Below are positions 30,721 to 63,942 of a stretch of DNA of 63,942 bases, piece after piece. The DNA is from a virus (lineage: Duplodnaviria; Caudoviricetes). The DNA lies in IMG/VR virus record IMGVR_UViG_3300012663_000802, positions 1 through 63,942 of that record. The stretch is one strand, 5' to 3'. The notes under the pieces are model-generated. The model made no database searches, was not told where the DNA came from, and was given only the letters and a program-made list of their open reading frames with translations. Both the position numbers and the translations under genes were made by a program. The first letter of the stretch is position 1, and the number at the start of each line of letters is the position of its first letter.

Positions 30721-32535
30721 TTAGCCCCTAAGTTCTTTTACTTGCTCCTCAAGAGAAGCGATCTTAATAGATTGTTCTTTAATTGCCTCAATGAGCAATG
30801 CTACCATATTTTGGTATGACACAGACAGGGTTCCTTCTGAATCTTCTAGTACTAGCTCAGGTGCAACCTTCTGTACCTCTTGAGCAACAACACCCATCTC
30901 AAGTGTCTCAGAACCAATACGGTTGTAGTTATAACCTGTAAGTGCTTTGACCTTATCAAGGGCGCCTGTAAGAGGAGTTAGGTTCTCCTTAAGACGAGCA
31001 TCAGAGTTGATAGTGAGCGTTCCACCAAGGGTTAAGTTACCGCTAATGGTCTGCCCACCAATGCTTGTAATCAAAGATAGCCAAGCGGTTGTGCCAGAGT
31101 TGTTTGTAGAGCGGATGTAGAAGTTGCTGTTATCAAAGAATGAACCAGCAATCTGCATAGAATAATAGTTAGCAGCGTTAGAGTGTGTAGACGCAATCAA
31201 GTGATACCAAGAAGAAGACACAGGCCAACCATTTGCGGTAGTCGTAGCGCTCTGCTCATAAAATCCAGAGTTAACACGAGTATTAAGGTTTGCGGTTGTA
31301 GAGCTTGCTGCGCTGTTTAAGTATGTAGCGGTAGTAGCAGAGGTAGCAGTAGCGGCGTTACCTGAAGTTGTAGTCGCTGTAGTGGCGGTAGCTGCGTTAC
31401 CGTCAATGTTTACGCCAGTAAGAGTCTGAGAGGCAGATGCACGGTTGTTTGCAATGGATGTTGTTCCAACAAAGAAGGTATTTCCATTTAGAGTAACTGT
31501 GCCTGTTGCTGCTGGAAGAGTGATGGTGTTAGTGCCAGCAGCTGCCGCAGGTTGTAAGGTAAGCGTTCCTGATGTAGAGCCAGGCATTGCAACGCTTGAG
31601 ATACCTGTTAGCGCTTGGTTAGCAGAGGTTCGGTTAAGAGTTACTGCTGTAGTTCCTACGTAGGTAGTGTCTCCTTGGAGAGCTGCAGTACCTGTAGTTG
31701 CTGGAAGAGTAAAGGTAGTTGTACCTGCTGCTGCAGATGCTTGAACAGTTGTAGTACCAGAGGTTGATCCTGGGAACGCTACGCTTGAGATTCCGGTAAG
31801 GGCAAGGTTTGCTGTTGTTCGGTTTAACGCTACAGAGGTGGTACCAATAAACAAAGCGGAGTTGCCTAAAATGGCAGAGGAAAGAGTTCCACCAGTTAAG
31901 TTAGAAGCGGTAAGTGTTCCCCAAGATGCTGTTGTTCCATCAGTAGTCAGATACTTACCGCTGTTACCTGTTTGAGTTGGAAGAGCGTTTAGAGTTGTCC
32001 AAGAAGCACTAGTTCCATCAGTAGTTAAGAACTTACCTGAGTTAGATGTTTGACTTGGAAGGCTTACAGGAGCTGCTGCCCACTTAAGGCCTGTTGCTTG
32101 AGCGCTGTCTGCGGTAAGCAAGTAGCCGTCAGTCCCAACAGTAACGTTAGTAAAGGAGGTTGTAGAGTTACCTACAAAGATCCCTCCCTTGGTAGTAGCG
32201 CTAAGTCCTGTTCCACCATTGGCAATAGTTAAGTCATTGGTAAGAGTTAAATCAGTAGCAGAGATTGCACCGGTAAAGGTAGCACCCGCTAGAGGGGCGT
32301 AGACCGCTGCAACTTGAGCGGCTGTAACTTTCCCATTAAGTTGGGTCTGAACGTCGCTTGTAAGGCCTGCTAGGTACTGTATTTGGGCATTTGTGACTGC
32401 GCCAATAGATGCAGAGGCAAGAGTAGTGGATCCTAGGACTCGTAAAGAGCCGGATACTACGGTGTCACCCGTGGTGTTTAGCGAGCTAACAACAAGAGGT
32501 TCTCCGTAGATATGGTTAAGCTTATTTAAAGCCAC
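30721..32535 (-). CDS. tail fibre with C-terminal Peptidase S74 intramolecular chaperone
   Basis: SDARLKEN...GVVAQEV...SVSYQNMVALLIEAIKE; LPxQT..SGK.LTTDGT repeats. Confidence 0.9.
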   Translation of the reverse strand: MALNKLNHIYGEPLVVSSLNTTGDTVVSGSLRVLGSTTLASASIGAVTNAQIQYLAGLTSDVQTQLNGKVTAAQVAAVYAPLAGATFTGAISATDLTLTNDLTIANGGTGLSATTKGGIFVGNSTTSFTNVTVGTDGYLLTADSAQATGLKWAAAPVSLPSQTSNSGKFLTTDGTSASWTTLNALPTQTGNSGKYLTTDGTTASWGTLTASNLTGGTLSSAILGNSALFIGTTSVALNRTTANLALTGISSVAFPGSTSGTTTVQASAAAGTTTFTLPATTGTAALQGDTTYVGTTAVTLNRTSANQALTGISSVAMPGSTSGTLTLQPAAAAGTNTITLPAATGTVTLNGNTFFVGTTSIANNRASASQTLTGVNIDGNAATATTATTTSGNAATATSATTATYLNSAASSTTANLNTRVNSGFYEQSATTTANGWPVSSSWYHLIASTHSNAANYYSMQIAGSFFDNSNFYIRSTNNSGTTAWLSLITSIGGQTISGNLTLGGTLTINSDARLKENLTPLTGALDKVKALTGYNYNRIGSETLEMGVVAQEVQKVAPELVLEDSEGTLSVSYQNMVALLIEAIKEQSIKIASLEEQVKELRG

Positions 32536-32547
32536 CTTGAAGCCTCC

Positions 32548-35487: not shown

Positions 35488-35513
35488 TAATTAGCCTCTT
35501 CCATTATCATTAC

Positions 35514-38417
35514 TTAGCTTCCTAATAAGATATCCATTGCACGGAATGGATACGCCTTTCCAACAGTATTTACGTTAGGTCCTAGCATAACTCTACCATC
35601 AAAAGTAGATCCTGCTGGAGGAACCTCGTTAAAGGCAATCCAACCATCACTATCCAACATAAATCCGTCTAATGGTAGCATAGATTGCCAAACATAGTCG
35701 GGATAACTTGGGGTCTGCATTACTCCGTTTAGGGTAATCATTAAACGTAATGGGTTGTAAAGAGGAACTTTGGTGCCCTGGAACCTAGGCTCAAACCTGC
35801 TTGTAACCCCATCAAAGGTATACCGTAGGTCGTCCAAGGGAGTAATGTCAGGTAGGTAAGGAAGGCTGGCAAAAATAAGATCGTCAACGTATTTCTTGCT
35901 AGTAGCATCTGCGTTGTCCACAGGAGTTAGTGGGACGTGTACGTGCCCCGTGAATGTAGGGCTTTCTGTACGAGCAACAGCTGTAGAGATATATGGCTCA
36001 CCTATCGGGGTAGCTGCCCAAGTACCGATAGTTACGTATCCAAGAGTTGCAATATTTAAAGGGACACCTGAGTACTGAGCTAGGTTGACTACGTCTGTTC
36101 CAACTTTAATAGCGCCGCTAGTTACGCTAGAAGTACCAGAGTTAGAGATAATCCAAGAAGAGTTAGCAAGATAGGTACCAGAGGTAACAAATATATAGTT
36201 ACCTGGCTTAATGGTTCCAGCTAGAAGGTTGCCGTTAAAGTCAGTGGCACGGGTAAGAATCCACTTTGTAACCGCGTCACCTGGGTTGGTAGTGACATAG
36301 ATACCGTTTTGCTTGGCATCAGTCTGGTCTTTTACAAGAACTCGCTGGTTAATAGTAACGCCTACCCCATCAAGGATAAGAGCTCCGTTTACCGCAGCTG
36401 TGAGAGTTGCCCCTACGCCAAGACCGCCAGTAGAGTCAGAGGTTCCGTTTACATATACTGAAGATAGATTGGCGCTGGTTGTGTAAATAACCTGGTTCTT
36501 AATAGTAAGTCCAGAAGCAATATTGTCTACGTACTCTTTGTTAGCAGCCTGACCACCAGCTGTTGGGTAGGGCACAAGGGTAGTTGTACTAAAGGTTGTA
36601 GGTAGGTTTACGCTAAGAGAGCCTGTGGCCCCACTTGTAGATGAGCCAATATTTACGTTAGTAATTGAACCAAATGCCCCACCAGTTCCAAGATTTATTG
36701 TCTTGGTTATACCACTTGTAGTTTGGTTAGCGGAGTAGTTGTGAGTTACGGCCCCGGTAGGTGTTCCACCAATGTTTAATGATGTAGCAGCTCCAGCAAA
36801 ACTTACTGTTGTAGCACCTGTGTTATATAGGTCTACGTAGGTTAGGTTGCCTTTAACTGTAGGGGCATTAAGAGTTGTAATAGCGGTTGAATCGTTAGAT
36901 CCAATACCTAAAGTCGTAGCTGCTCCAGCAAAGTTAACCGTAGTTGCTACCGCATTAATTAAGTTAAATGAGGTTGTTCCAGAGACAATAGATGTGTTAA
37001 GTGTTGGAGATGTGGCTGCTGCGTAGGAGTTTGTATCAATTGCGTAGGTATTTGTACCTGTGCGCTTTACAAAACCTACGCCTGTTAAACCAGCAAGTGC
37101 TGTAAGTTCATTGCTTGCTGCTTGATATGCGTGTGAGTGACCTGTATCGGCTTTTCCACCAAGCTGTGTTTGAATAGAGGATGTGACGCCTGTTACGTAA
37201 TTTAACTGAGTAGTGGTTACTGTTGCACCAGCAAGCTTATTTAACTCTGCAGTTGTAGCGGTTAACCCTGTTAGCTTATTAATTTCTGTAGATGTAGCTG
37301 TAACAACTACAGTATCGTTAATATAAGGGTTAGTTAATGTCTTATTAGTAAGTGTTTGAGTACCTGTAAGTGTGGCCACTGCTGAGCCAATAGCAAGTGT
37401 GTAGGTTCCTGCAGAATCATTGTATGTTCCAGTAAGACCAGTGCTAGCAACAATTGTGTTGTTGATCTCATCTTGGACACGCTCTTGTGTGTAATATAGG
37501 TTTGTACCCTCAGGAACTGCTGAGCTAGTAAGGGCTGTAAATTTACCATCTGTATATGTGTTGGCACTAGAAAGGGTAGTAGAGTCCCCAGTAATTCTAA
37601 GAGATGCTTCAGCAGCGATAGCAGTATTTCTATTAGTTACTTCAGTAGCAATAGCGTTTGTAATTGCTGTACCGCGATTTGAAGTTTCAGTAGCAATAGC
37701 TGCGTTTCTATCTGTAACCTCTGTTGCAATCTTAGTGTCTGTGTAAGCCTGGTCAGTAACAGAGGCTGCGGATATAGCAGAGTTGCGATTAGTTACCTCA
37801 GTACCAATAGCTGTGGTAATAGCTGCGTCACGAGCAGTAATCTCTGTGTTAATGGCGTTTGTAATTGCTGTACCACGGGCGGTAGTTTCAACGCCAATGG
37901 CTGTATTACGAGCAGCAATCTCAGCAGTTTCTCTTGCATCTGTGTAAGTCTGCGAAATACCAACAGCTTCATTCTTAGCATTAGCGATGTTGACGTTACG
38001 GTCAAGTACTTCTTGAGCAATTGCAGTAGCAACTTTTGTATCTGTATATGCTTGAGCAACGCCAATACCGTAACCCACACCACCGTTAATAGAATCATAT
38101 ATGTCTTGTGGAAGAAGCCCTGCTTTTATCCAAGCAGTTCCGTTGTCAAGGTATAAAAACCCTACGTTACCATTAAGACTGTAAGTATCTGTTGCCACAT
38201 ATACACGACCCGCACTACCAGCAGTTGGGCGAGCTGCAAAAGTTCCGTATAAAACTGTAGTGCTAGATCCTCCAGCAGCAACCCAGCCAGAACCCGAATA
38301 GCTATATAGGGTGTTGTCAGTAGTATTAAAGTAAACATCACCAGCAACAAGGGTCGGGATTGTTGGTACTGTTGCTGAGGCTAGTACGTTTAACGGAACA
38401 AGGCTTTTTCTGCTCAT
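35514..38417 (-). CDS. long fibre protein with coiled-coil repeats
   Basis: (A)I.TEVT.RN.AI repeats; RVLVKDQT...NGIYV...TRATDF domain. Confidence 0.8.
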   Translation of the reverse strand: MSRKSLVPLNVLASATVPTIPTLVAGDVYFNTTDNTLYSYSGSGWVAAGGSSTTVLYGTFAARPTAGSAGRVYVATDTYSLNGNVGFLYLDNGTAWIKAGLLPQDIYDSINGGVGYGIGVAQAYTDTKVATAIAQEVLDRNVNIANAKNEAVGISQTYTDARETAEIAARNTAIGVETTARGTAITNAINTEITARDAAITTAIGTEVTNRNSAISAASVTDQAYTDTKIATEVTDRNAAIATETSNRGTAITNAIATEVTNRNTAIAAEASLRITGDSTTLSSANTYTDGKFTALTSSAVPEGTNLYYTQERVQDEINNTIVASTGLTGTYNDSAGTYTLAIGSAVATLTGTQTLTNKTLTNPYINDTVVVTATSTEINKLTGLTATTAELNKLAGATVTTTQLNYVTGVTSSIQTQLGGKADTGHSHAYQAASNELTALAGLTGVGFVKRTGTNTYAIDTNSYAAATSPTLNTSIVSGTTSFNLINAVATTVNFAGAATTLGIGSNDSTAITTLNAPTVKGNLTYVDLYNTGATTVSFAGAATSLNIGGTPTGAVTHNYSANQTTSGITKTINLGTGGAFGSITNVNIGSSTSGATGSLSVNLPTTFSTTTLVPYPTAGGQAANKEYVDNIASGLTIKNQVIYTTSANLSSVYVNGTSDSTGGLGVGATLTAAVNGALILDGVGVTINQRVLVKDQTDAKQNGIYVTTNPGDAVTKWILTRATDFNGNLLAGTIKPGNYIFVTSGTYLANSSWIISNSGTSSVTSGAIKVGTDVVNLAQYSGVPLNIATLGYVTIGTWAATPIGEPYISTAVARTESPTFTGHVHVPLTPVDNADATSKKYVDDLIFASLPYLPDITPLDDLRYTFDGVTSRFEPRFQGTKVPLYNPLRLMITLNGVMQTPSYPDYVWQSMLPLDGFMLDSDGWIAFNEVPPAGSTFDGRVMLGPNVNTVGKAYPFRAMDILLGS

Positions 38418-38420
38418 GTG

Positions 38421-39929
38421 TTATCCGTGGACTACTGCGCGATACTGTCCTGCTGTAGGGGCAACTGAAAACAGAAGAGTAACTGTGTTGACTGTGGCGT
38501 GTTGTACATCACACATTACTTCATCATACGTAGAAGTAGCTGAGTATACTGCAACAGTTACATCACGAGTGTTTAGGTTGTGAGTAACGGTGATTGAAGT
38601 AGCAGATCCATCACCAATAGCTGTTGCATACTTGCGAACAACTACTGCAGTATCAACTGCAACATCATTAGCGTTAGACACAATACCCAAGCCAGCAACA
38701 ACATCAAGTGTGTTACCTGTCTTAGTTAAACCGTTACCTGCTGTAATCTGACCAAGGCCAGTAAACTGTGTGAAAACTAACGCTGTTGTTCCTACTGTTA
38801 CTGTACCGTTGTTTGTAAGAGTCCAACCAGAGTCTGCATTTGCAGTTCCTTCTTCCACAAATACTGCAAAGGAAGATGTAATCTCAGCTGAGGTGTCTGC
38901 GTCAGTTGCTCGTGTAGGTGCTCCTGTTGCGTTTACAACGTAGATGCCGTTTTCTGCGCCATCTGCTTGGTCCTTAACAAGGATACGGTTACCCGTAGCA
39001 AGAGTTACTCCATCAAGAACATCGCCGTTTTCAAAAGCTGTTGCTAAAGTTACAGCAGTTGTAGTAGCTGCACGAACAGAAGCCTTCCAATCAATACCTA
39101 CAACTGCTGCATCAACGTAACCTTTGTTAGCGGCATCTGTTGCCACTGTAGGTGTAGCAAGGTTAGTAATCTTTTGGCTGTTAAGATCTACTGAAGCTGT
39201 GGCCACAGCAAAATCATGAAGTTTATTTTGTACAAGGGCCACGGTACCTGTAGCATCTGGTAAAGATACTGTTCGGTCGGCTGTTGGGTCTACAACAGCA
39301 AAGGTAGTTTCAAACTCGTTTGCTGTTCCGCCTTCAAAAATAATATTGTGTGTATCTGGAAGATAGATACCATGAATTGTTGGTGTCTGCCCAATAGCAG
39401 TAATTGTTGGGCCATTTATTGTTGGTGTTGTAAGAGTTTTGTTACTGAGTGTGTCTGTTGTATCTGTACCAACAAGGGTAGTTGTGGCATTTGGCAAAGA
39501 GATTGTACGGTCTGCAGTTGGGTCAACTACAGTAAGAGTAGTTTCATACGCATCAGCGGTAGCGCCTTCAAAGACGATAGCTACGCCTGTATCAAGAGAT
39601 ACTGTTCCAGTAAAGGTTGGAGAGGCAAGAGGTGCCTTTAGGTTTAACTGACCTTGAATACCGGAGGTAACTCCGTCTACATAGTTAAGTTCTGTGGCGC
39701 TTACAAGGGTTCCAGCAAGGATATTGATTTCAGCCGCGGTAGCAGTAACACCGTTAAGACCAATGGCTTCAAATGCAACACCATTGTAAATGCGCATTTC
39801 ATTGGCCACTGTGTTGTAATAAACTTGACCGGCAACAGGGGTTGATGGATCAGCAGCTAGGTTTTGAATAACCGCATTTTGAAGTTCATTTTTGGTTAAA
39901 TCAATCGGGGTTAAAAATTTACGTGCCAT
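38421..39929 (-). CDS. fibre / decoration protein
   Basis: FEG.TA...ETT..VVDPTADRT.SLP twice; RILVKDQ...NGIYVV...TRATDAD; ITVTHNLNT C-terminal domain. Confidence 0.8.
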   Translation of the reverse strand: MARKFLTPIDLTKNELQNAVIQNLAADPSTPVAGQVYYNTVANEMRIYNGVAFEAIGLNGVTATAAEINILAGTLVSATELNYVDGVTSGIQGQLNLKAPLASPTFTGTVSLDTGVAIVFEGATADAYETTLTVVDPTADRTISLPNATTTLVGTDTTDTLSNKTLTTPTINGPTITAIGQTPTIHGIYLPDTHNIIFEGGTANEFETTFAVVDPTADRTVSLPDATGTVALVQNKLHDFAVATASVDLNSQKITNLATPTVATDAANKGYVDAAVVGIDWKASVRAATTTAVTLATAFENGDVLDGVTLATGNRILVKDQADGAENGIYVVNATGAPTRATDADTSAEITSSFAVFVEEGTANADSGWTLTNNGTVTVGTTALVFTQFTGLGQITAGNGLTKTGNTLDVVAGLGIVSNANDVAVDTAVVVRKYATAIGDGSATSITVTHNLNTRDVTVAVYSATSTYDEVMCDVQHATVNTVTLLFSVAPTAGQYRAVVHG

Positions 39930-41898: not shown

Positions 41899-42993
41899 TT
41901 AGTTGGTTTCTGCGATAACTACAGACTGATCTGTGATCAGACCTAGACCGTAGATTGCGTACCAAGCAAGTGCGTGCTCACGACCGAAGTCTAGAATACC
42001 GCCATCGCGGAGTTCTACTGGAAGAGAGATTGCGTGACCGAATGCGTTATCTCCAATGAAGATAGCTGAGTAGCGGTCTGCGTTACCGTTACCTGTCTTG
42101 CGAACAGGAGTTGTGTATCCACCACCAGTTGGGTAGACGATTGACTCTGGAGCAACTGCAGTATCAGTGGTGTAGTTAGTACCTGCACCGTTTGTTACCT
42201 TGTCGATCTGAGTTGTTTCGATGAATACTGTGTCGTATAGACGACCAATTTCACCTAGCATGAAGTTACCTGGAGCTGCGTACTTTGTTACTTCAATGAA
42301 CTCTGAGTTGTCACGAAGCTTACGGCTCTGGTGTGGGTGAACGAACGCAACGTAAGTCTCACCAAGGCGAGGAATGTTACGTGTTGCAAGTGTCTCAACT
42401 GCGTCCTTAACAGTACGTGTTGAAAGGTTGAAGTTACCTGTCATTGAAGCACGTGATGTACCGTTTGTACCGTATGCGTAAAGGTTGTTACCAGCAGCGT
42501 TTGAAGATGTTGAGTATAGACCTGAGCGATCTTCACCGTAGATTACAGATGAAGCGGCCATTAGTGTGTCACGAGCCTGACCATCAAGGTATAGGGCCAT
42601 GTTACGTCCTAGAAGACGTGAAGCTGATGCCATAACGTCATCGAATGATGCGTTAAGTAGTAGCTCTGATACAGCAATTGCAAAGCCGTGCTCTGCTACT
42701 GTGATTGAGAACTGCTGTGCTGTTAGTGCGTTTGTTGACATACGGACACCTTCAACTAGTGAAGATGCTGATCCGAGGTTGTTATAACGCATGAAGTTGA
42801 TCTGGAGACCAGGTGCAACTCCTAATTCTGTCTTCTTAACAGCGAACTGCTCGAAGCGTAGAATTGGCATTGACTGGAAAAGGATTTCCTTTGACCAGAT
42901 TGTCTGAATTGCTTGTGTTAGCTGGCTGTTAGAGCCAGAGTATGCTGTAGGTGCTGCGGCTAGATTGCCGGTACCTGTTACGGCTGATGCCAT
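41899..42993 (-). CDS. major capsid protein (N4-gp56-like family)
   Basis: YVAFVHPHQ, GEIGRL, ELRDGGILDFGREHALAWY; follows scaffold; biased codon use. Confidence 0.93.
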   Translation of the reverse strand: MASAVTGTGNLAAAPTAYSGSNSQLTQAIQTIWSKEILFQSMPILRFEQFAVKKTELGVAPGLQINFMRYNNLGSASSLVEGVRMSTNALTAQQFSITVAEHGFAIAVSELLLNASFDDVMASASRLLGRNMALYLDGQARDTLMAASSVIYGEDRSGLYSTSSNAAGNNLYAYGTNGTSRASMTGNFNLSTRTVKDAVETLATRNIPRLGETYVAFVHPHQSRKLRDNSEFIEVTKYAAPGNFMLGEIGRLYDTVFIETTQIDKVTNGAGTNYTTDTAVAPESIVYPTGGGYTTPVRKTGNGNADRYSAIFIGDNAFGHAISLPVELRDGGILDFGREHALAWYAIYGLGLITDQSVVIAETN

Positions 42994-46505: not shown

Positions 46506-48086
46506 TTAAAAGAAAGGGCTGGCGCTTACTTCAATAGTAGGCATAACCATTTCTTGGGTCAAAGAACAAGCTAAAGCTAAAGAATCCACAAAATCGTCGT
46601 GTGCGTGCGCCTCATCAGGAGCAGCCACTAGAAAGTTAGGGCCTTTGTACTGAACCTCGGCATCAGTCATCTGCTGATAGAACTTCTTCCAAATTCGTAG
46701 GCGCCTTGTCTTAGCATGTGCGGGCCAGGAAACCATTTGACGTTGGATTAGTGCTTGAAGGTGCTTCCATCGTCTAGATTGTTCAGATGGGCTAGAAGTA
46801 ACAGATATAACTTCAGCTCTTGGCATAAGGATCTTTAGTCGCTGTGCAACAGCATCTCCGACACCGTTAGCGTCTACACCAATAGCTAGCACGTCGTAGT
46901 TAGATAAAAATTGTTGAATCTGAAAATACTGCTCTTCCCAGTCATCGCCTTGAATCTCTAACCAGTTTAGAACTCTATGATCGTAATAGCCAAACTCATC
47001 CGGCCTATCCCAGTCAACCCACACAACAGTTACAACTGTTGAGTCCATCTTACGAGCCGGGTCAATTCCTACAACAACAGGCGATCTGAAATGGCTCTTA
47101 ACAAGTTCTTGTGAGGTATCACCAAGGTCATCCATAATTGAGGATGTAATGAACATACCGCGTTCTAGCAACCACTTACAGTTATATGAGAGCTGGAACT
47201 CGTCTGAGTCCTCTCCGATACGTAGCATTTCTTTTCTAATAAACTTCTCGTAGTTAGTTTGCACTTTTGCTACATCTCTCCAGTCCCACTGAAAATGATT
47301 TTGCTTAGCTCGTGCACCCATCTGTCTACGCTTATTTAATTGAATAGCTCGATAAAAGTTGTTCTTGTGTGTAGTAGGTGTGCCTGTTTTAACAATAGTA
47401 GCGTTATAGTACGCACCCATAGGGGCAATAGACTTTGACACTACAAAGTCGTCTGCTTCTTGACACTCATCAATGATAATTAAATGGAAAGACTTAGATT
47501 CAATCTTAGCTCGTGGGTTAGCTGTCATCATCATAAGAGTAGAGCCAGACTTCTTAAGTTTAATATTCTTAGTTACTCCAGGAGTCTTTGTTGGAATATC
47601 GTCTATCTCAGGATCTCCAAAGACCTCCATAGCACGCTCACTAGTAAGTCGTGATACTGTACGCCCGTATAGGGTTTCTACCTGGTTTTGTACGGGGGCA
47701 AACATTCCCACCCAGATACCATCACCAAATTTACCTAGCAAATCTGGGTACATTATAGCTAGACGTGGAAGAATAACCATAAGAGTTGCCACCGTGTTAG
47801 CAATAGTTTCAGACTTACCTGACTGACGAGAAGCAAGAGCTGTAACTTCTTCTCCATCATTAATAATTACTGACTCAATAACACGACGTGCAAGAGGCTT
47901 CTGATAGTTATGAAGCTCATGTCCGACCAACAGCTCCATAAACTGCATAATTTTGTCTACAAGTACTTTTACAAATTCTTTTGATAGTTCGGACAGCTCT
48001 TCTTCAGGCTCGTCTAAACCTATCTCTTCAGCATCAATATCGTCTTCGGCATCAAATTCTTCTAGATCTTCATCTAAATCGCTCAC
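46506..48086 (-). CDS. terL: terminase large subunit
   Basis: ASRQSGKS Walker A, IIIDE Walker B, GTP coupling motif, VGIDPA and HDDFVDS nuclease motifs. Confidence 0.95.
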   Translation of the reverse strand: MSDLDEDLEEFDAEDDIDAEEIGLDEPEEELSELSKEFVKVLVDKIMQFMELLVGHELHNYQKPLARRVIESVIINDGEEVTALASRQSGKSETIANTVATLMVILPRLAIMYPDLLGKFGDGIWVGMFAPVQNQVETLYGRTVSRLTSERAMEVFGDPEIDDIPTKTPGVTKNIKLKKSGSTLMMMTANPRAKIESKSFHLIIIDECQEADDFVVSKSIAPMGAYYNATIVKTGTPTTHKNNFYRAIQLNKRRQMGARAKQNHFQWDWRDVAKVQTNYEKFIRKEMLRIGEDSDEFQLSYNCKWLLERGMFITSSIMDDLGDTSQELVKSHFRSPVVVGIDPARKMDSTVVTVVWVDWDRPDEFGYYDHRVLNWLEIQGDDWEEQYFQIQQFLSNYDVLAIGVDANGVGDAVAQRLKILMPRAEVISVTSSPSEQSRRWKHLQALIQRQMVSWPAHAKTRRLRIWKKFYQQMTDAEVQYKGPNFLVAAPDEAHAHDDFVDSLALACSLTQEMVMPTIEVSASPFF

Positions 48087-56802: not shown

Positions 56803-57369
56803 TTAAGCTTCTTGTACCTGTGTAATGATCTTACCACCAGAATATATATCGTGCTTTATAGCAGCCTCTATAGCTTTTCGCAGAATTTTTTCTGCGGCCT
56901 CTGGAGTAGTTGCCTTTTCATAGTTAAGAGCCTCTAAAGCGCCCAAAGCAATATCTCCACCGCTACCTGCGTAATAAACGCGGCGGGCTTCTCTATCCCA
57001 AGAGTAGTCATTAAAAATCGGGTAGATAACACCACGAACCGAAACTAGAAGGTTAGAGTCGTGAAATGCTGCGTCTCCATCTTCCTTACCTTCAAAGCCG
57101 GCATCTTGAAATGCTTTACGCATCGAAGGAATAAAAGTTTTAGTCATAAAGGTATCTAAGTTATCTGTAGCACGTGGCTTTGGTGGTTTCCAACCAAACT
57201 GTGTAATATTTCCACCACGAGATGCACCAGAGACAGCTATCAGTACACCGTTGTTATTAATAATTTTTGGTGTTGCTAAATCCATGTAGCGACCATCTTC
57301 ATCAGATGCACGACTATCGCATCCGATTACGGTCCAGCCATCACCCTGTATAGCAGCAAGCGTAGTCAT
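56803..57369 (-). CDS. Ntn-hydrolase protease, HslV/proteasome beta-like
   Basis: N-terminal (M)TT, DSR, K at position ~33, AGSGG..ALG, DIYSGG. Confidence 0.88.
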   Translation of the reverse strand: MTTLAAIQGDGWTVIGCDSRASDEDGRYMDLATPKIINNNGVLIAVSGASRGGNITQFGWKPPKPRATDNLDTFMTKTFIPSMRKAFQDAGFEGKEDGDAAFHDSNLLVSVRGVIYPIFNDYSWDREARRVYYAGSGGDIALGALEALNYEKATTPEAAEKILRKAIEAAIKHDIYSGGKIITQVQEA

Positions 57370-57404
57370 TAGAACCCTCTCTTGTATAGCTATAGGATAG
57401 CAGA

Positions 57405-57869
57405 CTAATCTATGGTACCTTGCCCAAAGCTCTGCTCGTTACTTTGCGGAGGGGTTCCTGTAACAGTATCCCACATACCACCTGTATACCTAGCTAGCAC
57501 GTTGTCAATATAGTCAGTTGTAGAGCCGTAGTTTCCTAGCTGATCCCATTCGCCCTGAGATACTCCAGGGTAGCCTACAACTGTATCGTCACGCATTAGG
57601 ATTACTAAATACTCTTGCTCTTTGTTGTAACCTAGCTTTTGAGCTCTAGAACGCCCACTGTTCCTTGATGGGGCTGGATCGACTACTTCATAGCCAACAC
57701 CAAATTGAGGGTCCACAATAGAGGTGTTACCAACAAGTTGGTTCATTCCGTCGTTACGTCCACCAAAGTAACCTGGAGGAGGATCTATTCCATACTTAGA
57801 CTTATAGGCAGCAGTCATTGCTGCTTTGTACTCAGGTGTATCTGAGAAGAATCTATGTGCTCTTGCCAT
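57405..57869 (-). CDS. KTSC-like domain protein
   Basis: RAQKLGYNKEQEYLVILMRD...YPGVSQGEWDQL. Confidence 0.55.
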   Translation of the reverse strand: MARAHRFFSDTPEYKAAMTAAYKSKYGIDPPPGYFGGRNDGMNQLVGNTSIVDPQFGVGYEVVDPAPSRNSGRSRAQKLGYNKEQEYLVILMRDDTVVGYPGVSQGEWDQLGNYGSTTDYIDNVLARYTGGMWDTVTGTPPQSNEQSFGQGTID

Positions 57870-57878
57870 AAGAGTATG

Positions 57879-58049
57879 CTACTCCTTACCGGCCCAACCG
57901 CCACCTTTAAAGTGAGCGGGTGTGGCTGACCAGACGCGGGACATATTTGTGCTACACCCAGAACACATAGGCAGGGTATCCTCATGGAAAGAGCGTTCAA
58001 ACTCTACAGTGATTCCACACTTGTCACATTTAAAATCATACTTTGGCAT
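57879..58049 (-). CDS. FmdB-family zinc ribbon protein
   Basis: MPKYDFKCDKCG...CSGC...FKGGGW. Confidence 0.85.
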   Translation of the reverse strand: MPKYDFKCDKCGITVEFERSFHEDTLPMCSGCSTNMSRVWSATPAHFKGGGWAGKE

Positions 58050-58144
58050 TAGTCTTGGCACTCCTTGCATCTAGCAGTCGGGTTCTTAGTTCCTACTTCT
58101 ACTTTGAACATAACTCCACAATTGAAGCAGAGCACATTCAACAT
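58049..58144 (-). CDS. small zinc ribbon protein
   Basis: MLNVLCFNCG...RCKECQD with GAAGGA Shine-Dalgarno. Confidence 0.55.
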   Translation of the reverse strand: MLNVLCFNCGVMFKVEVGTKNPTARCKECQD

Positions 58145-58206
58145 CAATCCTTCTTGTTCCATAATTTCCAAACTTTCGGCGGGCAACTTTTGGTGTGTGT
58201 ACAGCG

Positions 58207-58278
58207 CTGATCTTCCTGGATTCGAACCAGGGACAACTCGATTAACAGTCGAGGGCTCTGCCGCTGAGCTAAAGATCA
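58207..58278 (-). tRNA. trnN: tRNA-Asn(GTT), CCA not encoded
   Basis: Cloverleaf: acceptor TGATCTT/AAGATCA, D arm GCTC/GAGC, anticodon arm CTCGA-CTGTTAA-TCGAG, T arm CCTGG-TTCGAAT-CCAGG, discriminator G. Confidence 0.96.
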
Positions 58279-58283
58279 ATAAA

Positions 58284-58379
58284 GGACCTGTAAGCCCAGT
58301 GCGCCTTAGAGTGCTACGGCGTATCCGTTAACTTTCGCTAACTCACCAGCTTTTACTAGATTGCGGTACTTACAGGTCC
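58284..58379 (-). ncRNA. unidentified 96-nt multi-stem RNA
   Basis: 11-bp closing stem GGACCTGTAAG/CTTACAGGTCC enclosing three hairpins, one with a GAAA tetraloop; promoter directly upstream. Confidence 0.65.
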
Positions 58380-58389
58380 GTTAATTAAT

Positions 58390-58398
58390 ATTCTACCA
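58390..58398 (-). promoter_or_regulatory. extended -10 promoter of the ncRNA-tRNA transcript
   Basis: TGGTAGAAT, same as the motif at 49258-49266. Confidence 0.65.
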
Positions 58399-58402
58399 CA
58401 AG

Positions 58403-58936
58403 TTACTTGATTTCAATAACCTTTGCCTTCTTCTCCTCGGGTAGCTCTTGCTCCAAAGTAATTCGTAGCAATCCATCCTTAAGCTCTGCACCCTTGACGA
58501 CGATATACTCAGCTAGAGCGAACTCTTGCTTGAAGTCACGGGTAGCGATTCCCTTATGGATAGCTTCTTCCTGAGGTGCCCCTAATTCGCCTTCTACGGT
58601 CAACTGGAGCTCTTTGACACTGATCTTGATATCTTCCTTAGCAAAACCAGCTACAGCCAGCTCTAGGACGTATGTGTCCTTGTTTTTGTAGATGTTGTAT
58701 GGAGGATACCCGCCAGTTTTTACCTCAGCACTGATGTGCTTGAAGGTGTCAAATAGAGGATCGAAACCAATTGCCCAGCGATTGAACTGAGGAAAGAGCG
58801 AATTGATTGTAATTACCTCTGGTTTTGTGATTTTAGGGTAATGACCCCACTCTTTTGGATTCTTTGGTCCAAATGGATCAGTGTAACGATCCATGTGATT
58901 GTCTTTATTGTTTCCTTGCATAGGCATATTAGCCAT
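58403..58936 (-). CDS. Hsp20 small heat-shock protein (IbpA-like)
   Basis: YPPYNI, LAVAGF, HKGIATRDF, AELKDGLLRI.L, IEI. Confidence 0.93.
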   Translation of the reverse strand: MANMPMQGNNKDNHMDRYTDPFGPKNPKEWGHYPKITKPEVITINSLFPQFNRWAIGFDPLFDTFKHISAEVKTGGYPPYNIYKNKDTYVLELAVAGFAKEDIKISVKELQLTVEGELGAPQEEAIHKGIATRDFKQEFALAEYIVVKGAELKDGLLRITLEQELPEEKKAKVIEIK

Positions 58937-58997
58937 TTTTATCTCCTTAGACGATAAATTAGTTAAAAGAGGACTCATTTGAGCTCCTCTAATCAAT

Positions 58998-59006
58998 ATT
59001 ATAGCA
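58998..59006 (-). promoter_or_regulatory. extended -10 promoter for hsp20
   Basis: TGCTATAAT. Confidence 0.65.
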
Positions 59007-59299
59007 CATTTAGCCACTGTATCGCATTAAATACACCTCTAAAAATATTTTACCTCCTCTCTATGATCATAGTTCCCCCGATTCCCGCATAAATTTCCCC
59101 AAACTATGATCCTAGTCACACATGATGGGATAAATCGGACATAGGTGGGCCACTGTGTAGCTCAAAATACACTCAACCACTCGCGTTACCTGGTGGACAT
59201 TTGGGTTAAAAGGGATTTAAGGGTGGCAGGGGGTAAAAGCCACAACTAAAATAGTCGCGTACAGCACAAAGGAGAGGGGAGAGAACCTACCCGCATTAC

Positions 59300-59425
59300 T
59301 GGTAGTAGTATCGCCCCAAAAGGATACCTAGACTACTCCGTGTAGCCCGTAGCCCTAGCCCTTCAGGGGTAGTGCGTCATAGCACACTAGGGCACGGGGA
59401 GACCCCCGATACTATCTGTATCGGT
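59300..59425 (+). ncRNA. structured leader or ncRNA ahead of the first plus-strand gene
   Basis: CCCGT-a-GCCCTAG/CTAGGGC-ACGGG three-way junction; CCGATAC-tatct-GTATCGG hairpin. Confidence 0.45.
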
Positions 59426-59440
59426 AGCGAAAGGCGTCAA

Positions 59441-59971
59441 ATGTCAAAGACATTGACTCTCGCGGTTGCTAAGGCAATCATCTCACACTCAGAGGACACC
59501 TCTCACTCCATCACAGAGTTTATCAAACTCTTTAATGGTAAGACAGAGTTGTCTGACATCTACACAGGTGGCAAGTACAAGCGTGCCATCAACGCCTCCC
59601 GCGTATTCGGTGGCTATCTGTCTGGCAAGTTGCAGATAGAGCCTACCAAGTGGGAGGACTTGACTCAGACATTTTACAAGATGCCTGAGGAGTGCGCTGC
59701 TGTTATCGCTATGGGCGGTGATGTCCTTGCAGGGCTTAACACTCTCAAGGGCAAGGTTGATGCAGCCTCAGCAGAGGCAGTAGCAACACGCCGTGCCAAT
59801 GGCAAGGCACACGCCACATCTATCACGACCATCACCAAGGGTCGTGAGGCTTTCATCAAGGCAGGCTTGCCTGCTAGTGAAGCCATCAAACTCCTTGAGG
59901 CAGAGGTCAGCGCATTGACCCTGCTCCTTGAGGAGACACGGGCGAACGCGGAGAAGGCTTTGGTAGCCTAG
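59441..59971 (+). CDS. hypothetical 176-aa protein, first gene of the plus arm
   Basis: GAAAGG Shine-Dalgarno before ATG 59441; followed by terminator. Confidence 0.85.
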   Translation: MSKTLTLAVAKAIISHSEDTSHSITEFIKLFNGKTELSDIYTGGKYKRAINASRVFGGYLSGKLQIEPTKWEDLTQTFYKMPEECAAVIAMGGDVLAGLNTLKGKVDAASAEAVATRRANGKAHATSITTITKGREAFIKAGLPASEAIKLLEAEVSALTLLLEETRANAEKALVA

Positions 59972-59987
59972 TCTTTGCTCGTAGTGG

Positions 59988-60017
59988 AAGGGCGGGGGAT
60001 AATACTCCCGCCCTTTT
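59988..60017 (+). terminator. intrinsic terminator
   Basis: AAGGGCGGGGG-ataata-CTCCCGCCCTTTT. Confidence 0.75.
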
Positions 60018-60054
60018 GCTATGCGCATAGTAACTATGAGCATAATCGGGCTGG

Positions 60055-60470
60055 GGAATCTAGATTAACCTAGGTGACATATGTCTGCCGCACAGTGCTA
60101 TGGAACTGCTAGCACGCCCAAGAGTAGTCTTGGTATCCATTTTCGGTGTCCTGCTAACGAATAGGCTCCTAACTCTCATCATTGGGAGTTGGGAGTCTAT
60201 TCAGGCTACTACCCACCCACAACTCTTATCATTGAGAGTACGACCAGGCTATGGACTAGGGGTGGGGTCTGTTATCAGGTAGTTAGCGATGGATACATAG
60301 GTCGTGCATAGCACTAACAGCAGAGCACATAAAAGTATTCCTATGTATCTCTCACTACCTATCAGGTAGCAAGTGATGGAGACACAAGACTTATGACTGA
60401 GGCTTCTTAGTGAGCGTGTATGGTCTCTGCTCCTTGTGTCTCTCTCACTCTCTATCTGAGAGTGCTCAAC
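60055..60470 (+). ncRNA. candidate large structured ncRNA
   Basis: No credible ORF; 19-bp hairpin with G-U pairs, repeated ATCA/TATC loops, two covarying stem-loop units. Confidence 0.6.
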
Positions 60471-60488
60471 ACAAACATTGGAGGCTGT

Positions 60489-60617
60489 ATGTCTGTACAA
60501 GCAAGGCTGTGCTGTTCTGTCTGTAAGGAGTATTCCTATCCTTCACAGGCTATCTTCCTCTTCTCTCTATCTACAGGTGCTTATGTGTGTAAGCCTTGTA
60601 AGATGAGTAACAAATAG
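60489..60617 (+). CDS. small zinc-finger protein
   Basis: GGAGG Shine-Dalgarno; CSVC...CKPC. Confidence 0.55.
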   Translation: MSVQARLCCSVCKEYSYPSQAIFLFSLSTGAYVCKPCKMSNK

Positions 60618-60660
60618 GTTTCCCCGCCTATTTTCTGCCGTTGCCCTGTTTTATGGGACG

Positions 60661-60690
60661 CCTCCTGAGTATGAGGAATACAAACTGCTC
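60661..60690 (+). promoter_or_regulatory. H-type pseudoknot in a 5' UTR
   Basis: CCTC/GAGG stem, loop GAGTA pairs with downstream TGCTC across an A-rich linker. Confidence 0.5.
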
Positions 60691-60718
60691 ACCCAACCAA
60701 CTACCGAAAGGAAATAAA

Positions 60719-60901
60719 ATGGCAACAAAATGTGCAGTTAAGTTTTGTAACAACACTGATTTAGTCTATAGCGGTGTTGACGCATTTATGCTTGGCGGTA
60801 TCCCTACCGAGAAGATTTGCTACACCTGTGGCAATAGTTATGCCCAAAAAGGCGCAATCTACGAAGAAGTTAAAGAAGCAATAGAAAGGCTAACGCTATG
60901 A
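60719..60901 (+). CDS. small zinc-binding protein
   Basis: GAAAGGA Shine-Dalgarno; CAVKFC...CYTC. Confidence 0.7.
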   Translation: MATKCAVKFCNNTDLVYSGVDAFMLGGIPTEKICYTCGNSYAQKGAIYEEVKEAIERLTL

Positions 60902-61089
60902 AGTGTTATGACTGTAAGGCACAGATAGATGATGCTATTGCCTATGAGGCACACATCTTGTGCTATCCCTGCTATCACATCTGGTCTAAAGCAGATACAG
61001 ATGCAAGACTAACCCTATCTATGAAAGGAGAGAGTAATGAACGAAATAGAGTTATCACCGACAACCGAGAAACTATTGTGGTTGCTTAA
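60898..61089 (+). CDS. small zinc-binding protein
   Basis: CYDC...CYPC; ATGA coupling. Confidence 0.65.
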   Translation: MKCYDCKAQIDDAIAYEAHILCYPCYHIWSKADTDARLTLSMKGESNERNRVITDNRETIVVA

Positions 61090-61121
61090 TGCAATCCTAT
61101 CTATGAAAGAAGAGAGTAATG
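61014..61121 (+). repeat. 26-bp direct repeat carrying Shine-Dalgarno and ATG
   Basis: CCTATCTATGAAAG(G/A)AGAGAGTAATG at 61014-61039 and 61096-61121 (25/26 identical). Confidence 0.85.
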
Positions 61122-61373
61122 TGTAATCCCTTTGATGGCACTCAGTTATGTGCCAAAGTTGACCCCGACCTTTTCTTCCCTGAAGATCGGAAAGACTATA
61201 AACCTAGCATCGCACAGGCAAAAGCCCTGTGTGCTCAATGCCCTATGCTTGCTGCTTGCAGTAAGTATGTAAATGAAACCCCCGGCCTTTATGGCGTGTG
61301 GGCTGGCAAATGGTTAGACGGAAGCGGCTATACAAGCCCAGCCTCTTCCTTAGTTACTAGAAAGGTAGCATAA
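61119..61373 (+). CDS. whiB: WhiB family transcription factor (second copy)
   Basis: C...DPDLFFP...CAQCPMLAAC...GVWAG. Confidence 0.9.
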   Translation: MCNPFDGTQLCAKVDPDLFFPEDRKDYKPSIAQAKALCAQCPMLAACSKYVNETPGLYGVWAGKWLDGSGYTSPASSLVTRKVA

Positions 61374-61534
61374 TGGTACTAGATAATGGAACAACGCTTG
61401 GCATAATGATTGCATTGCTCGGTGCAATGACAGTTATGTGTCTATTTTGGCGTGAGAACATACGCCTAACCAAAGAGGTTAGACGCCTACGGGTAGCACT
61501 ACGAGATGAAAGGATGACCCGCGTCAATGGATGA
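61373..61534 (+). CDS. 53-aa single-pass membrane protein (not in ORF track)
   Basis: Shine-Dalgarno and TAATG coupling; hydrophobic helix then basic coiled coil. Confidence 0.65.
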   Translation: MVLDNGTTLGIMIALLGAMTVMCLFWRENIRLTKEVRRLRVALRDERMTRVNG

Positions 61535-61652
61535 AGTAATGAAAGCACTTGATGAACTCGAAGAGTTCTGTATCAAGACACTAGCAGAGATTGGTGTGCT
61601 ACGCATACAGGTAGCACTTATTCACCAGACCCTCAAGAGCATTGAGGATTAG
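61527..61652 (+). CDS. 41-aa helical protein (not in ORF track)
   Basis: MDEVMKALDELEEFCIKTLAEIG...; fills the gap before a terminator. Confidence 0.5.
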   Translation: MDEVMKALDELEEFCIKTLAEIGVLRIQVALIHQTLKSIED

Positions 61653-61687
61653 TTTTATCTGAGGGGTCTGCAAGATACGCAGACACA

Positions 61688-61728
61688 GGCGGGTGGAGGT
61701 TTGAGGGAGCCTTCACCCGCCCATTTTT
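61688..61728 (+). terminator. intrinsic terminator
   Basis: GGCGGGTGGAGGTTT-gagg-GAGCCTTCACCCGCC then ATTTTT. Confidence 0.75.
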
Positions 61729-61750
61729 ATCCCTACACGAAAGGATTACA

Positions 61751-62485
61751 ATGGCTGATGTAGCATCGATGTGGTATGGCTCTGAGATAAATCAGATTGG
61801 CCGGCTTACCATCGCATCGTTCCTCCAACACAAACATACCTTCACGCTATACACCTACGACACCAGCGTCACAGTGCCAAAAGGAACTATCGTAATAGAT
61901 GCTAACGAAGTACTAGATGCTTCTCATATATTCGGTAAGAACAACATATGGCAACCATTTTCTGACCTATTCAGGTACAAGTTGTTGATGGAGACTGACC
62001 ACATCTGGGTTGATATGGATATGGTGTGCCTGAAAGACGATTGGCATTTCCAGCACGACTATGTGTTCTCATTGGAAAACACAGTTGAATATGGCTTGCG
62101 CTATAACAATGCTGTATTAAAAATGCCACGAGACAGCGAAGCGCTTCAATATATGTATGAGACTACCTCGTCAGGTATGCATAATGATTTACTTTGGTTT
62201 GAGCCTAAAGGGATCCCAATTAATTACGGACCTGTTTTACTCACTGATGTGGTTTATCAGTACGACCTATCTAAGTATGCTCTTCCTAAGTACGCGTTCT
62301 ATCCGGTGCTTACTGAAGAATCCTACAAGTTTTTACTACCTCAGCACACATCATCAATAATAAAACAATCTGAGGACAGTCACGCTGTACATATGTACGG
62401 CTCATTGATGGACAAGAAACGCCTTGAAAATGTAGACAAGTACAGTTTCGTGGGTGTTATGCAACAAAAATATAATTGCCTATAA
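61751..62485 (+). CDS. DXD glycosyltransferase (GT32-like)
   Basis: SMWYG, FSDLFRYKLL, IWVDMDMVCLK, NNAVLK, YGPVLLT, AVHMY. Confidence 0.85.
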   Translation: MADVASMWYGSEINQIGRLTIASFLQHKHTFTLYTYDTSVTVPKGTIVIDANEVLDASHIFGKNNIWQPFSDLFRYKLLMETDHIWVDMDMVCLKDDWHFQHDYVFSLENTVEYGLRYNNAVLKMPRDSEALQYMYETTSSGMHNDLLWFEPKGIPINYGPVLLTDVVYQYDLSKYALPKYAFYPVLTEESYKFLLPQHTSSIIKQSEDSHAVHMYGSLMDKKRLENVDKYSFVGVMQQKYNCL

Positions 62486-62505
62486 TCTCTATGAAAGGAG
62501 ACAAG

Positions 62506-62730
62506 ATGCAAACGCTATCAATACAGGCAAAGATAACCAAGCAAGAGATAACACAGCAAGATAGATACAACCTATGTATGCACATTATCAAACAGATAAT
62601 GTTTCCAACACAAACAATCGAGGCGCCCTATGTTCCGCAAGTCACCCAACAAAGACAGAGTCAAGCGAGTACAGCAGTTACGACGCTCCAACGCAGCGGG
62701 TTCCTTACCCAACAAGAAACGCTGGTCTAA
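62506..62730 (+). CDS. hypothetical Gln-rich protein
   Basis: Start-associated motif TCTATGAAAGGAGA before ATG 62506. Confidence 0.5.
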   Translation: MQTLSIQAKITKQEITQQDRYNLCMHIIKQIMFPTQTIEAPYVPQVTQQRQSQASTAVTTLQRSGFLTQQETLV

Positions 62731-62765
62731 GCGTATGCGCAATCTATGGAAAAAGGAGATACAAA

Positions 62766-63020
62766 ATGAGCAGTAATGTAACAACACTCAAGGTAGGTAT
62801 CGTATTACAAGGCGATGGTGGTGCCTCATCAGGTGCCATGATACTTGCACATAAACCATCTGATGAGTTCACAGATATTATTCTGTGTTATTCAGCAGCC
62901 AGTCCTTACGACCCATTTGTTGTATGGACATACGAACACGCAACAGGTATTTGCCGTAGAGGTGAGTACTTCAACAACATCTTACACGCAGGGTTTGCCT
63001 ATGATGAAAGGGAATGGTAA
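62766..63020 (+). CDS. hypothetical protein
   Basis: AAGGAG Shine-Dalgarno before ATG 62766. Confidence 0.65.
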   Translation: MSSNVTTLKVGIVLQGDGGASSGAMILAHKPSDEFTDIILCYSAASPYDPFVVWTYEHATGICRRGEYFNNILHAGFAYDEREW

Positions 63021-63274
63021 TGGGTAAAAGAAACAAGCGTCCAAAAGATTGGACAGATGAAGACAGAAGAGAACACGGATATATGACTATTGACGAGTTC
63101 GTTGATAAGTTTGCCTTTGGTCTCAAAGAGTCTCTACATACTAATTGGAAAGGTGCCAGCAAAGATGATGTGTTTCATCCTGAAGACTTGACATCTAATA
63201 TGCTTTCTTATGCAGAATCAGTGTACATAGTTACTGGAATCTTTGGAGTAGGGAGCACAAATGTCAAAGAGTGA
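63020..63274 (+). CDS. hypothetical protein
   Basis: TAATG coupling. Confidence 0.65.
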   Translation: MGKRNKRPKDWTDEDRREHGYMTIDEFVDKFAFGLKESLHTNWKGASKDDVFHPEDLTSNMLSYAESVYIVTGIFGVGSTNVKE

Positions 63275-63491
63275 TAATCCACCTGTGTATTTAGCAACAA
63301 GTGAGTTTCTTGCAGAGATACGAGAGTTAGGTTATCGCGACAACATAGGGTTAGATGACCTGCTTGATTTACTAGAGGAAGACCCATCATACATATTCCA
63401 GATGCGTGCAACTGTTCTGTGTATAGATGAGATGAACTTTGTCAGTCGTAATGTTGCACAGTGGTATTACAACAGACGCTTCCCAACATAA
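63261..63491 (+). CDS. hypothetical acidic protein
   Basis: GGAG Shine-Dalgarno; overlaps previous stop. Confidence 0.6.
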   Translation: MSKSDNPPVYLATSEFLAEIRELGYRDNIGLDDLLDLLEEDPSYIFQMRATVLCIDEMNFVSRNVAQWYYNRRFPT

Positions 63492-63514
63492 ACATTCCCC
63501 GCCCGCCTATACCG

Positions 63515-63830
63515 CTTGTATCTTAACCACAGATTGTGGCTAAGGTGCTGGTTGTATAGACAACCAATGAAAGGACTATCAAGCACCTAAACGTTGAGTA
63601 GTTAGGAAAGGCAAGCTGCTAAGGCTTCGAACGCTAACCCTATGAGAATAGGTGTCGCTAATAGATCGCTAACCCCCTTGTTCTGAGTACCTCTCCTGTT
63701 TCCCATAGACTTCGTGGGCTATGGAATAGATTGGCTAAACCAACACTTGCATAGACCTGGATATAAACGACAGCGTGGGGGTTGCCTAGCAGCCCCCACC
63801 TGTATTAGTATTCCCACACCGAGTGGGATG
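63515..63830 (+). ncRNA. candidate structured ncRNA
   Basis: About 350 nt without a long ORF, containing at least six hairpins. Confidence 0.4.
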
Positions 63831-63854
63831 TACCTACTAAAAGGAGGTACGTGC

Positions 63855-63942
63855 ATGGCTCCCAAAGCCCTGCATTACTGCGGCAATTGCGGCAGACGCA
63901 TACAAGATAACCAACCCAAATTAGAAATCAGTGTCAAACGTG
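63855..63942 (+). CDS. partial CDS at the window edge
   Basis: AAGGAGGT Shine-Dalgarno; MAPKALHYCGNCG... Confidence 0.55.
   Translation, partial: MAPKALHYCGNCGRRIQDNQPKLEISVKR

Follow-up and report, generated by a model that had tools for sequence, protein, structure and literature searches.

Restriction is known to fall hardest on the phage DNA that enters a cell first, as in T5-like and T7-like phages. According to PMC10644984, a T5-like phage is subject to Type I and Type II systems only if sites are present in the DNA transferred first. In the T7-like cases treated in PMC12455610 (Murciavirus, and T7 with its gene 0.3), selection is focused on first-entering, variable DNA with early anti-defence genes, and the effect of a Type I motif in Murciavirus is confined to the leading region, where selection is argued to be concentrated. 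The same source states that the first-entering DNA of conjugative plasmids has few restriction targets but many anti-defence genes, and its authors argue that such avoidance is irrelevant under headful packaging. Here we analysed a zone lacking restriction-type palindromes, referred to below as the palindrome desert, in the virus record IMGVR_UViG_3300012663_000802 of IMG/VR (Duplodnaviria; Caudoviricetes). The window is the whole record, a linear stretch of 63,942 nucleotides that is 65% complete by CheckV, and the desert starts where the coding strand switches, beside the gene hsp20.

The locus resembles the described systems in part. The pre-early region of T5-like phages is likewise a few-kb segment heading small genes of unknown function and ending beside a repeat-bearing non-coding stretch. 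T5, however, is a siphovirus with a 10.2-kb terminal repeat, whereas the phage of the window has a contractile tail and a near-total deficit of sites; for this phage, a terminal repeat and paused entry are putative. The preliminary description of this DNA had taken it as established that T5 first-step-transfer DNA is depleted of restriction sites. This was overstated, since the T5 region contains 627 four-base palindromes compared to 750 expected from a Markov model, or 588 from the rate elsewhere. The multi-word desert with its abrupt edge is therefore a different and much stronger manifestation, in a contractile-tailed phage. The T7-like cases concern one Type I motif in podoviruses, whereas many Type II-type palindromes are purged here in a myovirus of ~100 kb; a short terminal repeat (344 bp) in the nearest cultured terminase relatives is a point of likeness. 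The acidic Ocr-like first gene of the T7 type is not matched by the first gene of the desert. Conjugative plasmids differ in that they enter single-stranded by conjugation and not by phage injection. The T5-like and T7-like principle came from single motifs and experiment, whereas here it would be visible as a sequence signature alone, in freshwater actinobacterial myoviruses of a family not yet cultured. Searches of the literature on restriction avoidance, leading regions and first-step transfer yielded no account of such a desert, which is not proof of its absence.

A zone without eight four-base palindromes at the strand switch

A manual scan in the preliminary description had found none of GATC, AGCT, TCGA, AATT, CCGG, GGCC, CATG and ACGT (hereafter, sites) between 59163 and 61184, where about eight of each were expected. 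The recount gave zero for all eight words in this core, and the expectation was fair (6.5-9.4 per word, order 0). For the eight words together, ~44 sites are expected in the core from a second-order Markov background of its own composition, or ~48 from the rate elsewhere in the window. The stretch without sites measures 2026 bp, from the last AGCT at 59159 to the next GATC at 61185; the 1427 sites of the window are on average 45 bp apart, and the largest gap beyond the zone is 369 bp. The totals of three GATC and one AGCT from 59163 to the window end were also reproduced, as was the coincidence of the boundary with the strand switch, since it falls in the intergenic region where the switch occurs. 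Normal site density is back from 63591, and the window ends 350 bp beyond the palindrome-poor zone.

The deficit is specific to certain words. Over 59163-63942, the eight lowest observed/expected ratios among the 136 strand-symmetrised four-base words are exactly those of the eight named palindromes. TCGA and CCGG are scarce genome-wide (2.7-2.9 expected in the core), and therefore their absence alone is not significant. ATAT and TATA, which the preliminary description had not listed, occur once each in the core compared to 9-10 expected. CTAG, TGCA, GTAC, TTAA, CGCG and GCGC are not avoided in the window. There is no genome-wide deficit, as the counts over 1-59162 match the second-order Markov expectation (AGCT 412/412, GATC 207/207, GGCC 88/97).

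A sharp change of composition and strand at one point of a metagenomic contig might indicate an assembly chimera or a sequencing artefact at ~59.1 kb. Both were ruled out. At least six independent contigs align unbroken across the junction (e.g., 58416-60310 at 90% identity), and a contig of 8305 bases from an independent run spans 56846-63942. We consider the probability of either explanation negligible.

To locate the level of the deficit, synonymous codons were permuted. The 11 genes of the zone (3060 bases) contain 14 sites, compared to 69.3 ± 6.3 after permutation (minimum 50 in 500), and the four core genes contain none compared to 24.3 ± 4.1. The other eight four-base palindromes showed a milder deficit in the same 11 genes (79 vs 104.6 ± 7.9). 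As a control, the five genes just left of the boundary were permuted and retained their sites (86 vs 87.6 ± 7.1). When genes were permuted singly, all eight zone genes tested had z values between -1.6 and -4.8, compared to a mean of -0.61 for 47 genes on the left. The non-coding DNA of the core (795 bases) is also free of sites. Since the deficit lies in the arrangement of codons as well as in non-coding DNA, selection acts on double-stranded DNA words and not on proteins.

Longer palindromes were counted in the pooled zones of the window and 22 relatives (69.8 kb), with expectations from a maximal-order Markov model and 240 non-palindromic words of the same shape as controls. GGNCC occurs 32 times compared to 112 expected (0.29), CCNGG 74 times compared to 151 (0.49) and GCNGC 141 times compared to 226 (0.62), whereas the controls gave an observed/expected ratio of 1.01 ± 0.11. 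Six-base palindromes with non-avoided cores are low too (305 vs 379). In the window, the density of GGNCC is 0.23/kb in the zone and 2.35/kb elsewhere. GGNCC, CCNGG and GCNGC are classic Type II targets, and the word pattern points to Type II restriction as the probable selective agent.

It is unlikely, in our estimate, that the avoided words are instead targets of methylation and Type IV restriction, or matter for early transcription, and are not Type II cleavage sites. Many palindromes are avoided at once (10 of the 16 four-base words together with GGNCC, CCNGG and GCNGC), and methyl-dependent restriction is common in actinomycetes, both of which would fit such targets. On the other side, the DNA methyltransferase families PF00145, PF01555 and PF02086 were each found in 0 of 5 genomes (the window and four relatives with a completeness of 90% or more; no search was made for other modification routes), which also leaves no sign that the phage pre-methylates its site-rich remainder. 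Even so, this explanation would be a variant of the reading favoured below and not a replacement for it, because the DNA must still be exposed first.

A milder deficit of the same eight palindromes was seen in two tail-fibre/virion genes far from the zone, at 30721-35487 (22 vs 38.9 permuted, z -3.5) and 35514-39929 (49 vs 73.3, z -3.7), and the next two genes have z -2.2. Recent exchange or repeats could be the cause at 30721-39929.

Position of the step in related phages

The preliminary description had suggested relatives as a check, and 36 related loci were collected by means of hsp20. Most of them are depleted on the upstream side of hsp20, where the other eight palindromes are hardly altered. 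Sequence of 2.5 kb or more was available on the zone side in 25 loci. There, the 2-kb window with the fewest sites contains 4-28 in 23 of the loci, compared to ~50 per 2 kb on the other side; such a window minimum is biased low, and two of the loci (L009 and L010) are near-duplicates. The other two loci, L028 and L029 (38 and 40 sites), have hsp20 without the plus-strand block beside it and show no palindrome-poor zone within 10 kb. The genome plan differs there, and these loci are a natural control for the association of the zone with the plus-strand block. In the two complete relatives (~100 kb) the zone is the sole strong minimum.

When 34 loci were aligned on hsp20 and pooled, 24-30 sites/kb were found on the left and 8-12/kb from +750 to +3250, with the baseline regained by ~+5250. 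Recovery is thus gradual, over ~5 kb, and the onset is sharp. A conserved box, GGCCACTG (59148 in the window), is present at the same place in 13 of 13 aligned intergenic sequences and is followed by TNTAGCTC in most. In the same alignment, CTATGATC boxes and CGGACA repeats lie upstream of the box and a conserved stretch of ~90 bp downstream. With the box as anchor, every 50-bp bin on the left has 25-39 sites/kb and every bin on the right 2-10 sites/kb in 31 sequences (the window and 30 relatives), so that the step takes place within 50 bp. It stays at the box also when an additional gene lies between the box and hsp20.

These observations bear on the possibility of a compositional legacy, in which the block would be a recent acquisition from a lineage that avoids palindromes genome-wide. 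Mosaicism of the small genes between close relatives, the division of the first genes of the block into four BLAST clusters and the milder deficit in the two tail-fibre genes (z -3.5 and -3.7) would agree with such an origin. However, the depletion depends on position. Its onset is at the same box in all 31 sequences, irrespective of the genes downstream; it also extends over conserved non-coding DNA and fades gradually with distance. We regard this origin as very unlikely.

Further copies of the box sequence were noted. GGCCACTG occurs five times in the window, always on the plus strand (37374, 39804, 41884, 43719 and 59148), compared to 1.7 expected; at least five copies were seen in 4 of 100 shuffles. 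Many relatives have a second or third copy ~950 bp on, past the first gene, and the complete relative G005 has eight copies clustered within 2.1 kb (~32-34 kb).

Proposed genome ends, order of entry and early expression

Local restriction-site avoidance in a leading early module is well supported by these results. On balance, we lean towards the reading that the zone is the leading part of an early module kept palindrome-free by selection, with a first-injected genome end as the most economical reason. In this proposal, genome ends would be fixed near the box, as in the nearest cultured terminase relatives, and the desert end would enter the cell first, with entry that is polar and either slow or paused. 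Host RNA polymerase would read the first gene and its neighbours (the orphan protein, the structured RNA, the CxxC proteins and WhiB), and the early products would go on to disable restriction, or take control of the host, before the rest of the genome with its many sites becomes exposed. A Type II site in the leading segment would permit cleavage before protection, and sites would therefore be purged here and only here. The non-coding repeat elements at 60026-60490 and the CGCTAA repeats at 63631-63671 are candidate stop signals for a paused entry. The zone genes may have an anti-defence role, as the preliminary description had proposed.

Fixed ends are plausible in this phage by analogy with cultured relatives. 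The closest cultured large terminase (TerL) proteins are those of the Streptomyces phages BRock, LuckySocke, Alone3, GiJojo and pSt2308 (50-52% identity; LuckySocke 51%), which also share two further neighbouring genes. Their genomes have a long block and an opposite block of ~10-13 kb that diverge at a single point, as here. LuckySocke has one long block and an opposite block of ~10 kb, both read inward from the ends, and because of this its physical ends lie at the single divergent point of the layout, with an exact terminal repeat of 344 bp. The kinship of TerL and the same layout in relatives of the window would fit fixed ends here as well, and one such end may lie at 59.1-59.2 kb, beside the box, as suggested in the preliminary description.

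The 23 listed sequencing runs were used as contigs, which give no read starts or local depth. Contig ends pile up on the zone side, where 16 of the 36 related contigs end within 3.4 kb upstream of hsp20, compared to 2-3 downstream. The ends near the box, at 77, 97, 173 and 368 bases to its right, show no base-for-base agreement and fit branching of the assembly graph where conserved sequence stops. Such breaks are explained by mosaicism, because a close relative has swapped segments there.

Several observations weigh against a first-injected end at this position. The contig ends on the zone side are scattered and not base-precise. The two complete relatives carry end repeats, both of exactly 123 bp, which lie at unrelated places away from the zone; these are probably assembler overlaps. 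The ends of LuckySocke show no local palindrome depletion (649 vs 671), and the signature is therefore not tied to a mapped terminus. The T5 first-transfer region has no general four-base depletion either, so that neither model phage carries the desert signature. With an isoelectric point (pI) of 8.6, the protein of the first gene differs from the acidic DNA mimics of the Ocr type, and it matches no known anti-restriction protein among Pfam and PHROG families or PDB and BFVD folds. To our knowledge, no restriction enzymes have been reported from a host of this phage. Finally, no more than ~75 bp separate the box from the putative promoter of the first gene on its right. Since a site is expected every 45 bp, a genome end and the start of an early transcription unit cannot be told apart from the onset alone.

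The last point leads to the main rival explanation, avoidance in an early operon with no terminus nearby. The whole genome would enter fast or be circularly permuted, and only the first transcription units would need to stay intact, while co-injected proteins or a compartment would shield the rest, or phage recombination and ligation would rescue it afterwards. An onset ~75 bp upstream of the promoter-like site fits the start of a transcription unit equally well, and the zone spans the first transcription units, the first gene having its own terminator-like stem and contigs from RNA libraries. Both complete relatives assemble as circles, and contractile-tailed phages are usually thought to deliver their DNA fast. 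However, cleavage at any point of an unprotected genome normally proves fatal, and therefore a purely local avoidance gains little unless the rest is absent or shielded; the same argument is made for headful phages in PMC12455610. The fixed ends of the closest cultured terminase relatives and the hsp20 side of the same divergent region, which is not depleted at all, also argue against this rival. We judge it improbable, though the most serious of the alternatives.

Returning to a first-injected end, a more specific version can be put forward tentatively, as possible rather than probable. Delivery would be staged and polar from a fixed end beside GGCCACTG, the desert would be a pre-early segment with an inner stop made of repeats or hairpins, and the fast-evolving family of the first gene would be a new broad restriction inhibitor. 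If so, the sequence of an uncultured phage would be enough to locate its entering end and its anti-defence island, by way of step-like palindrome deserts.

A desert that marks the entering end would have several uses. Genomes of uncultured phages could be oriented and their first-expressed anti-defence genes found, and the length of DNA exposed before protection begins could be measured in base pairs. It would provide a shortlist of anti-restriction candidates (the 176-amino-acid orphan family, the structured RNA and the CxxC proteins) and would suggest that Type II enzymes with four- and five-base targets exert strong pressure in freshwater Actinobacteria.

Two further comparisons with LuckySocke were made. 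It differs from the present phage in host and habitat, and a search of 84.6 kb of its genome (40001-70000 not included) revealed no homologue of any zone gene. Its first eight bases, GGGTGGCA, recur at 59220-59227 in the window. This match was dismissed as chance: GGGTGGC occurs three times in the window compared to 4.5 expected, the match has no partner nearby, and its last four bases are not kept in relatives.

Genes and elements of the zone and the genome plan

The features of the zone and its flanks are listed in Table 1.

Table 1. Coordinates of the palindrome desert, its flanking elements and selected genes in the window
Feature	Position	Strand	Remarks
tail sheath	20390-22156		
major head protein	41899-42993		
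large terminase (TerL)	46506-48086		
hsp20, first gene of main block	58403-58936	-	normal palindrome density; ATG start behind AAGGAG site
left divergent intergenic part	58937-59147	.	site-dense; inverted repeat; CGGACA repeats
two CTATGATC(A/C) palindromic boxes	59061-59074, 59102-59115		
conserved box GGCCACTGTGTAGCTC	59148-59163	+	holds last GGCC and AGCT before the desert; landmark of the step
core desert	59163-61184	.	0 sites in coding and non-coding DNA
promoter-like site, putative (GTGGCA, 18 nt, TAAAAT)	59223-59252	+	consensus scan
first gene, 176 amino acids, all-helical orphan protein	59441-59971	+	pI 8.6; 20 acidic and 22 basic residues
terminator-like G+C-rich stem-loop, then T run	59990-60019	+	read from sequence; inverted repeat
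structured non-coding region, several long hairpins	60026-60490	+	465 nt, kept in distant relatives
three small genes, two with two CxxC pairs each	60489-60617, 60719-60901, 60898-61089	+	open reading frames
WhiB-like regulator	61119-61373	+	PHROG WhiB families
outer zone, partial depletion	61185-63590	.	15 sites in 2.4 kb, ~6/kb vs ~25/kb
weak glycosyltransferase-like gene	61751-62485		Pfam matches below cut-offs
inner end of zone, sites resume	63591-63700	.	beside conserved element with three CGCTAA repeats (63631-63671)

A TAnnnT hexamer is kept at the position of the putative promoter in close and mid relatives. The protein of the first gene has 20 homologues, all with at least 55% identity, and its AlphaFold model has a mean predicted local distance difference test score of 86.7. 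No Pfam or PHROG family and no PDB or BFVD fold match at E ≤ 0.001 was found for it, and the best score in the Atlas search was 0.88, to unnamed clusters that gave no useful lead. In relatives, the first gene of the block always encodes 170-200 amino acids, and the proteins form the four BLAST clusters (7, 3, 14 and 1 members). A profile comparison of two of the clusters gave 47% probability and an E-value of 2e-4 over 64 columns, too little to establish common descent of the positional counterparts. Neither Pfam nor PHROG gave a family for seven such counterparts in relatives.

The first gene is covered by contigs that begin at 59309 and 59312 and come from two RNA libraries, made in two studies. 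The RNA contig of run X15 stops at 59978, near the terminator-like stem, whereas a DNA contig continues. These contigs give a weak hint of a transcript over the first gene; stretches uncovered in the RNA runs carry no evidential weight.

The structured RNAs announced in the preliminary description are supported by folding: the minimum free energy of 60026-60490 is -177.3 kcal/mol compared to -139.8 ± 6.2 kcal/mol for shuffled sequences (z -6.0). In an alignment of 10 sequences, 39 pairs are predicted, of which 6 are changed on both sides, and invariant G-U pairs fit the plus strand only. A hairpin of ~27 pairs with an AUCAUU loop is kept in the 10 sequences, and a second hairpin has the same loop motif. 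Parts of the region are 80-91% identical in relatives with differing flanking genes. No Rfam family reaches threshold in 60026-60490, and over 58000-63942 nothing but tRNA does; ARAGORN found tRNA-Asn alone.

The small zinc proteins of the preliminary description were upheld in part, as two of the three small genes have paired CxxC motifs and no Pfam or PHROG family was matched. In a close relative from the independent DNA run X1, 170 other bases replace 60636-61119, and near-identical phages thus exchange their small CxxC genes; this relative differs over 60281-60441 too. The regulator WhiB was correctly named (PF02467, 50 bits vs a cut-off of 23.6, E 4.4e-13). Small acidic genes are also present in the outer zone. 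At the inner end, 63604-63666 is 90-92% identical to distant relatives, and contigs of two RNA libraries cover exactly the intergenic 63574-63726, which is not structured as RNA (z +1.2 and +0.7).

On the other side of the divergent region, the assignment of hsp20 was substantiated by a match to Hsp20/alpha-crystallin (PF00011, 57.2 bits vs a cut-off of 20.8, E 2e-15). Within 58937-59147, the CTATGATC(A/C) boxes and one to five CGGACA repeats are kept across relatives and look like candidate binding sites for a regulator, terminase or initiator. Just inside the main block are tRNA-Asn (58206-58278), a Zn_ribbon_8 protein (57879-58070, E 1.8e-9) and then an HslV-like peptidase (56803-57369).

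The phage had been called a myovirus, in agreement with the tail sheath and a baseplate wedge encoded in the window; tail fibres and a portal are encoded as well. Nearly all genes from 59017 down to 1 are on the minus strand, and the plus strand is used from ~59.2 kb to the window end. The desert heads this sole minor-strand gene block, which in the complete relatives is ~13 kb long and begins at the desert. A near-identical DNA search of 58000-63942 against the phage collection gave no match. An actinobacterial host fits the WhiB gene and the freshwater metagenomes containing the phage. According to the COBRA preprint (10.1101/2023.05.30.542503), whiB is used for host assignment in practice and some actinophage clades have multiple copies of it. 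In each of five near-complete relatives (G001-G005), 2-3 WhiB-like matches were found, only one per genome being in the plus-strand block. In the closest relative with flanking sequence (locus L002, 1200-2603 on the locus minus strand, past the window end), the block goes on beyond the zone with small genes without known function, a 467-amino-acid AAA_5 ATPase (E 2e-18) and a 396-amino-acid protein of unknown function.

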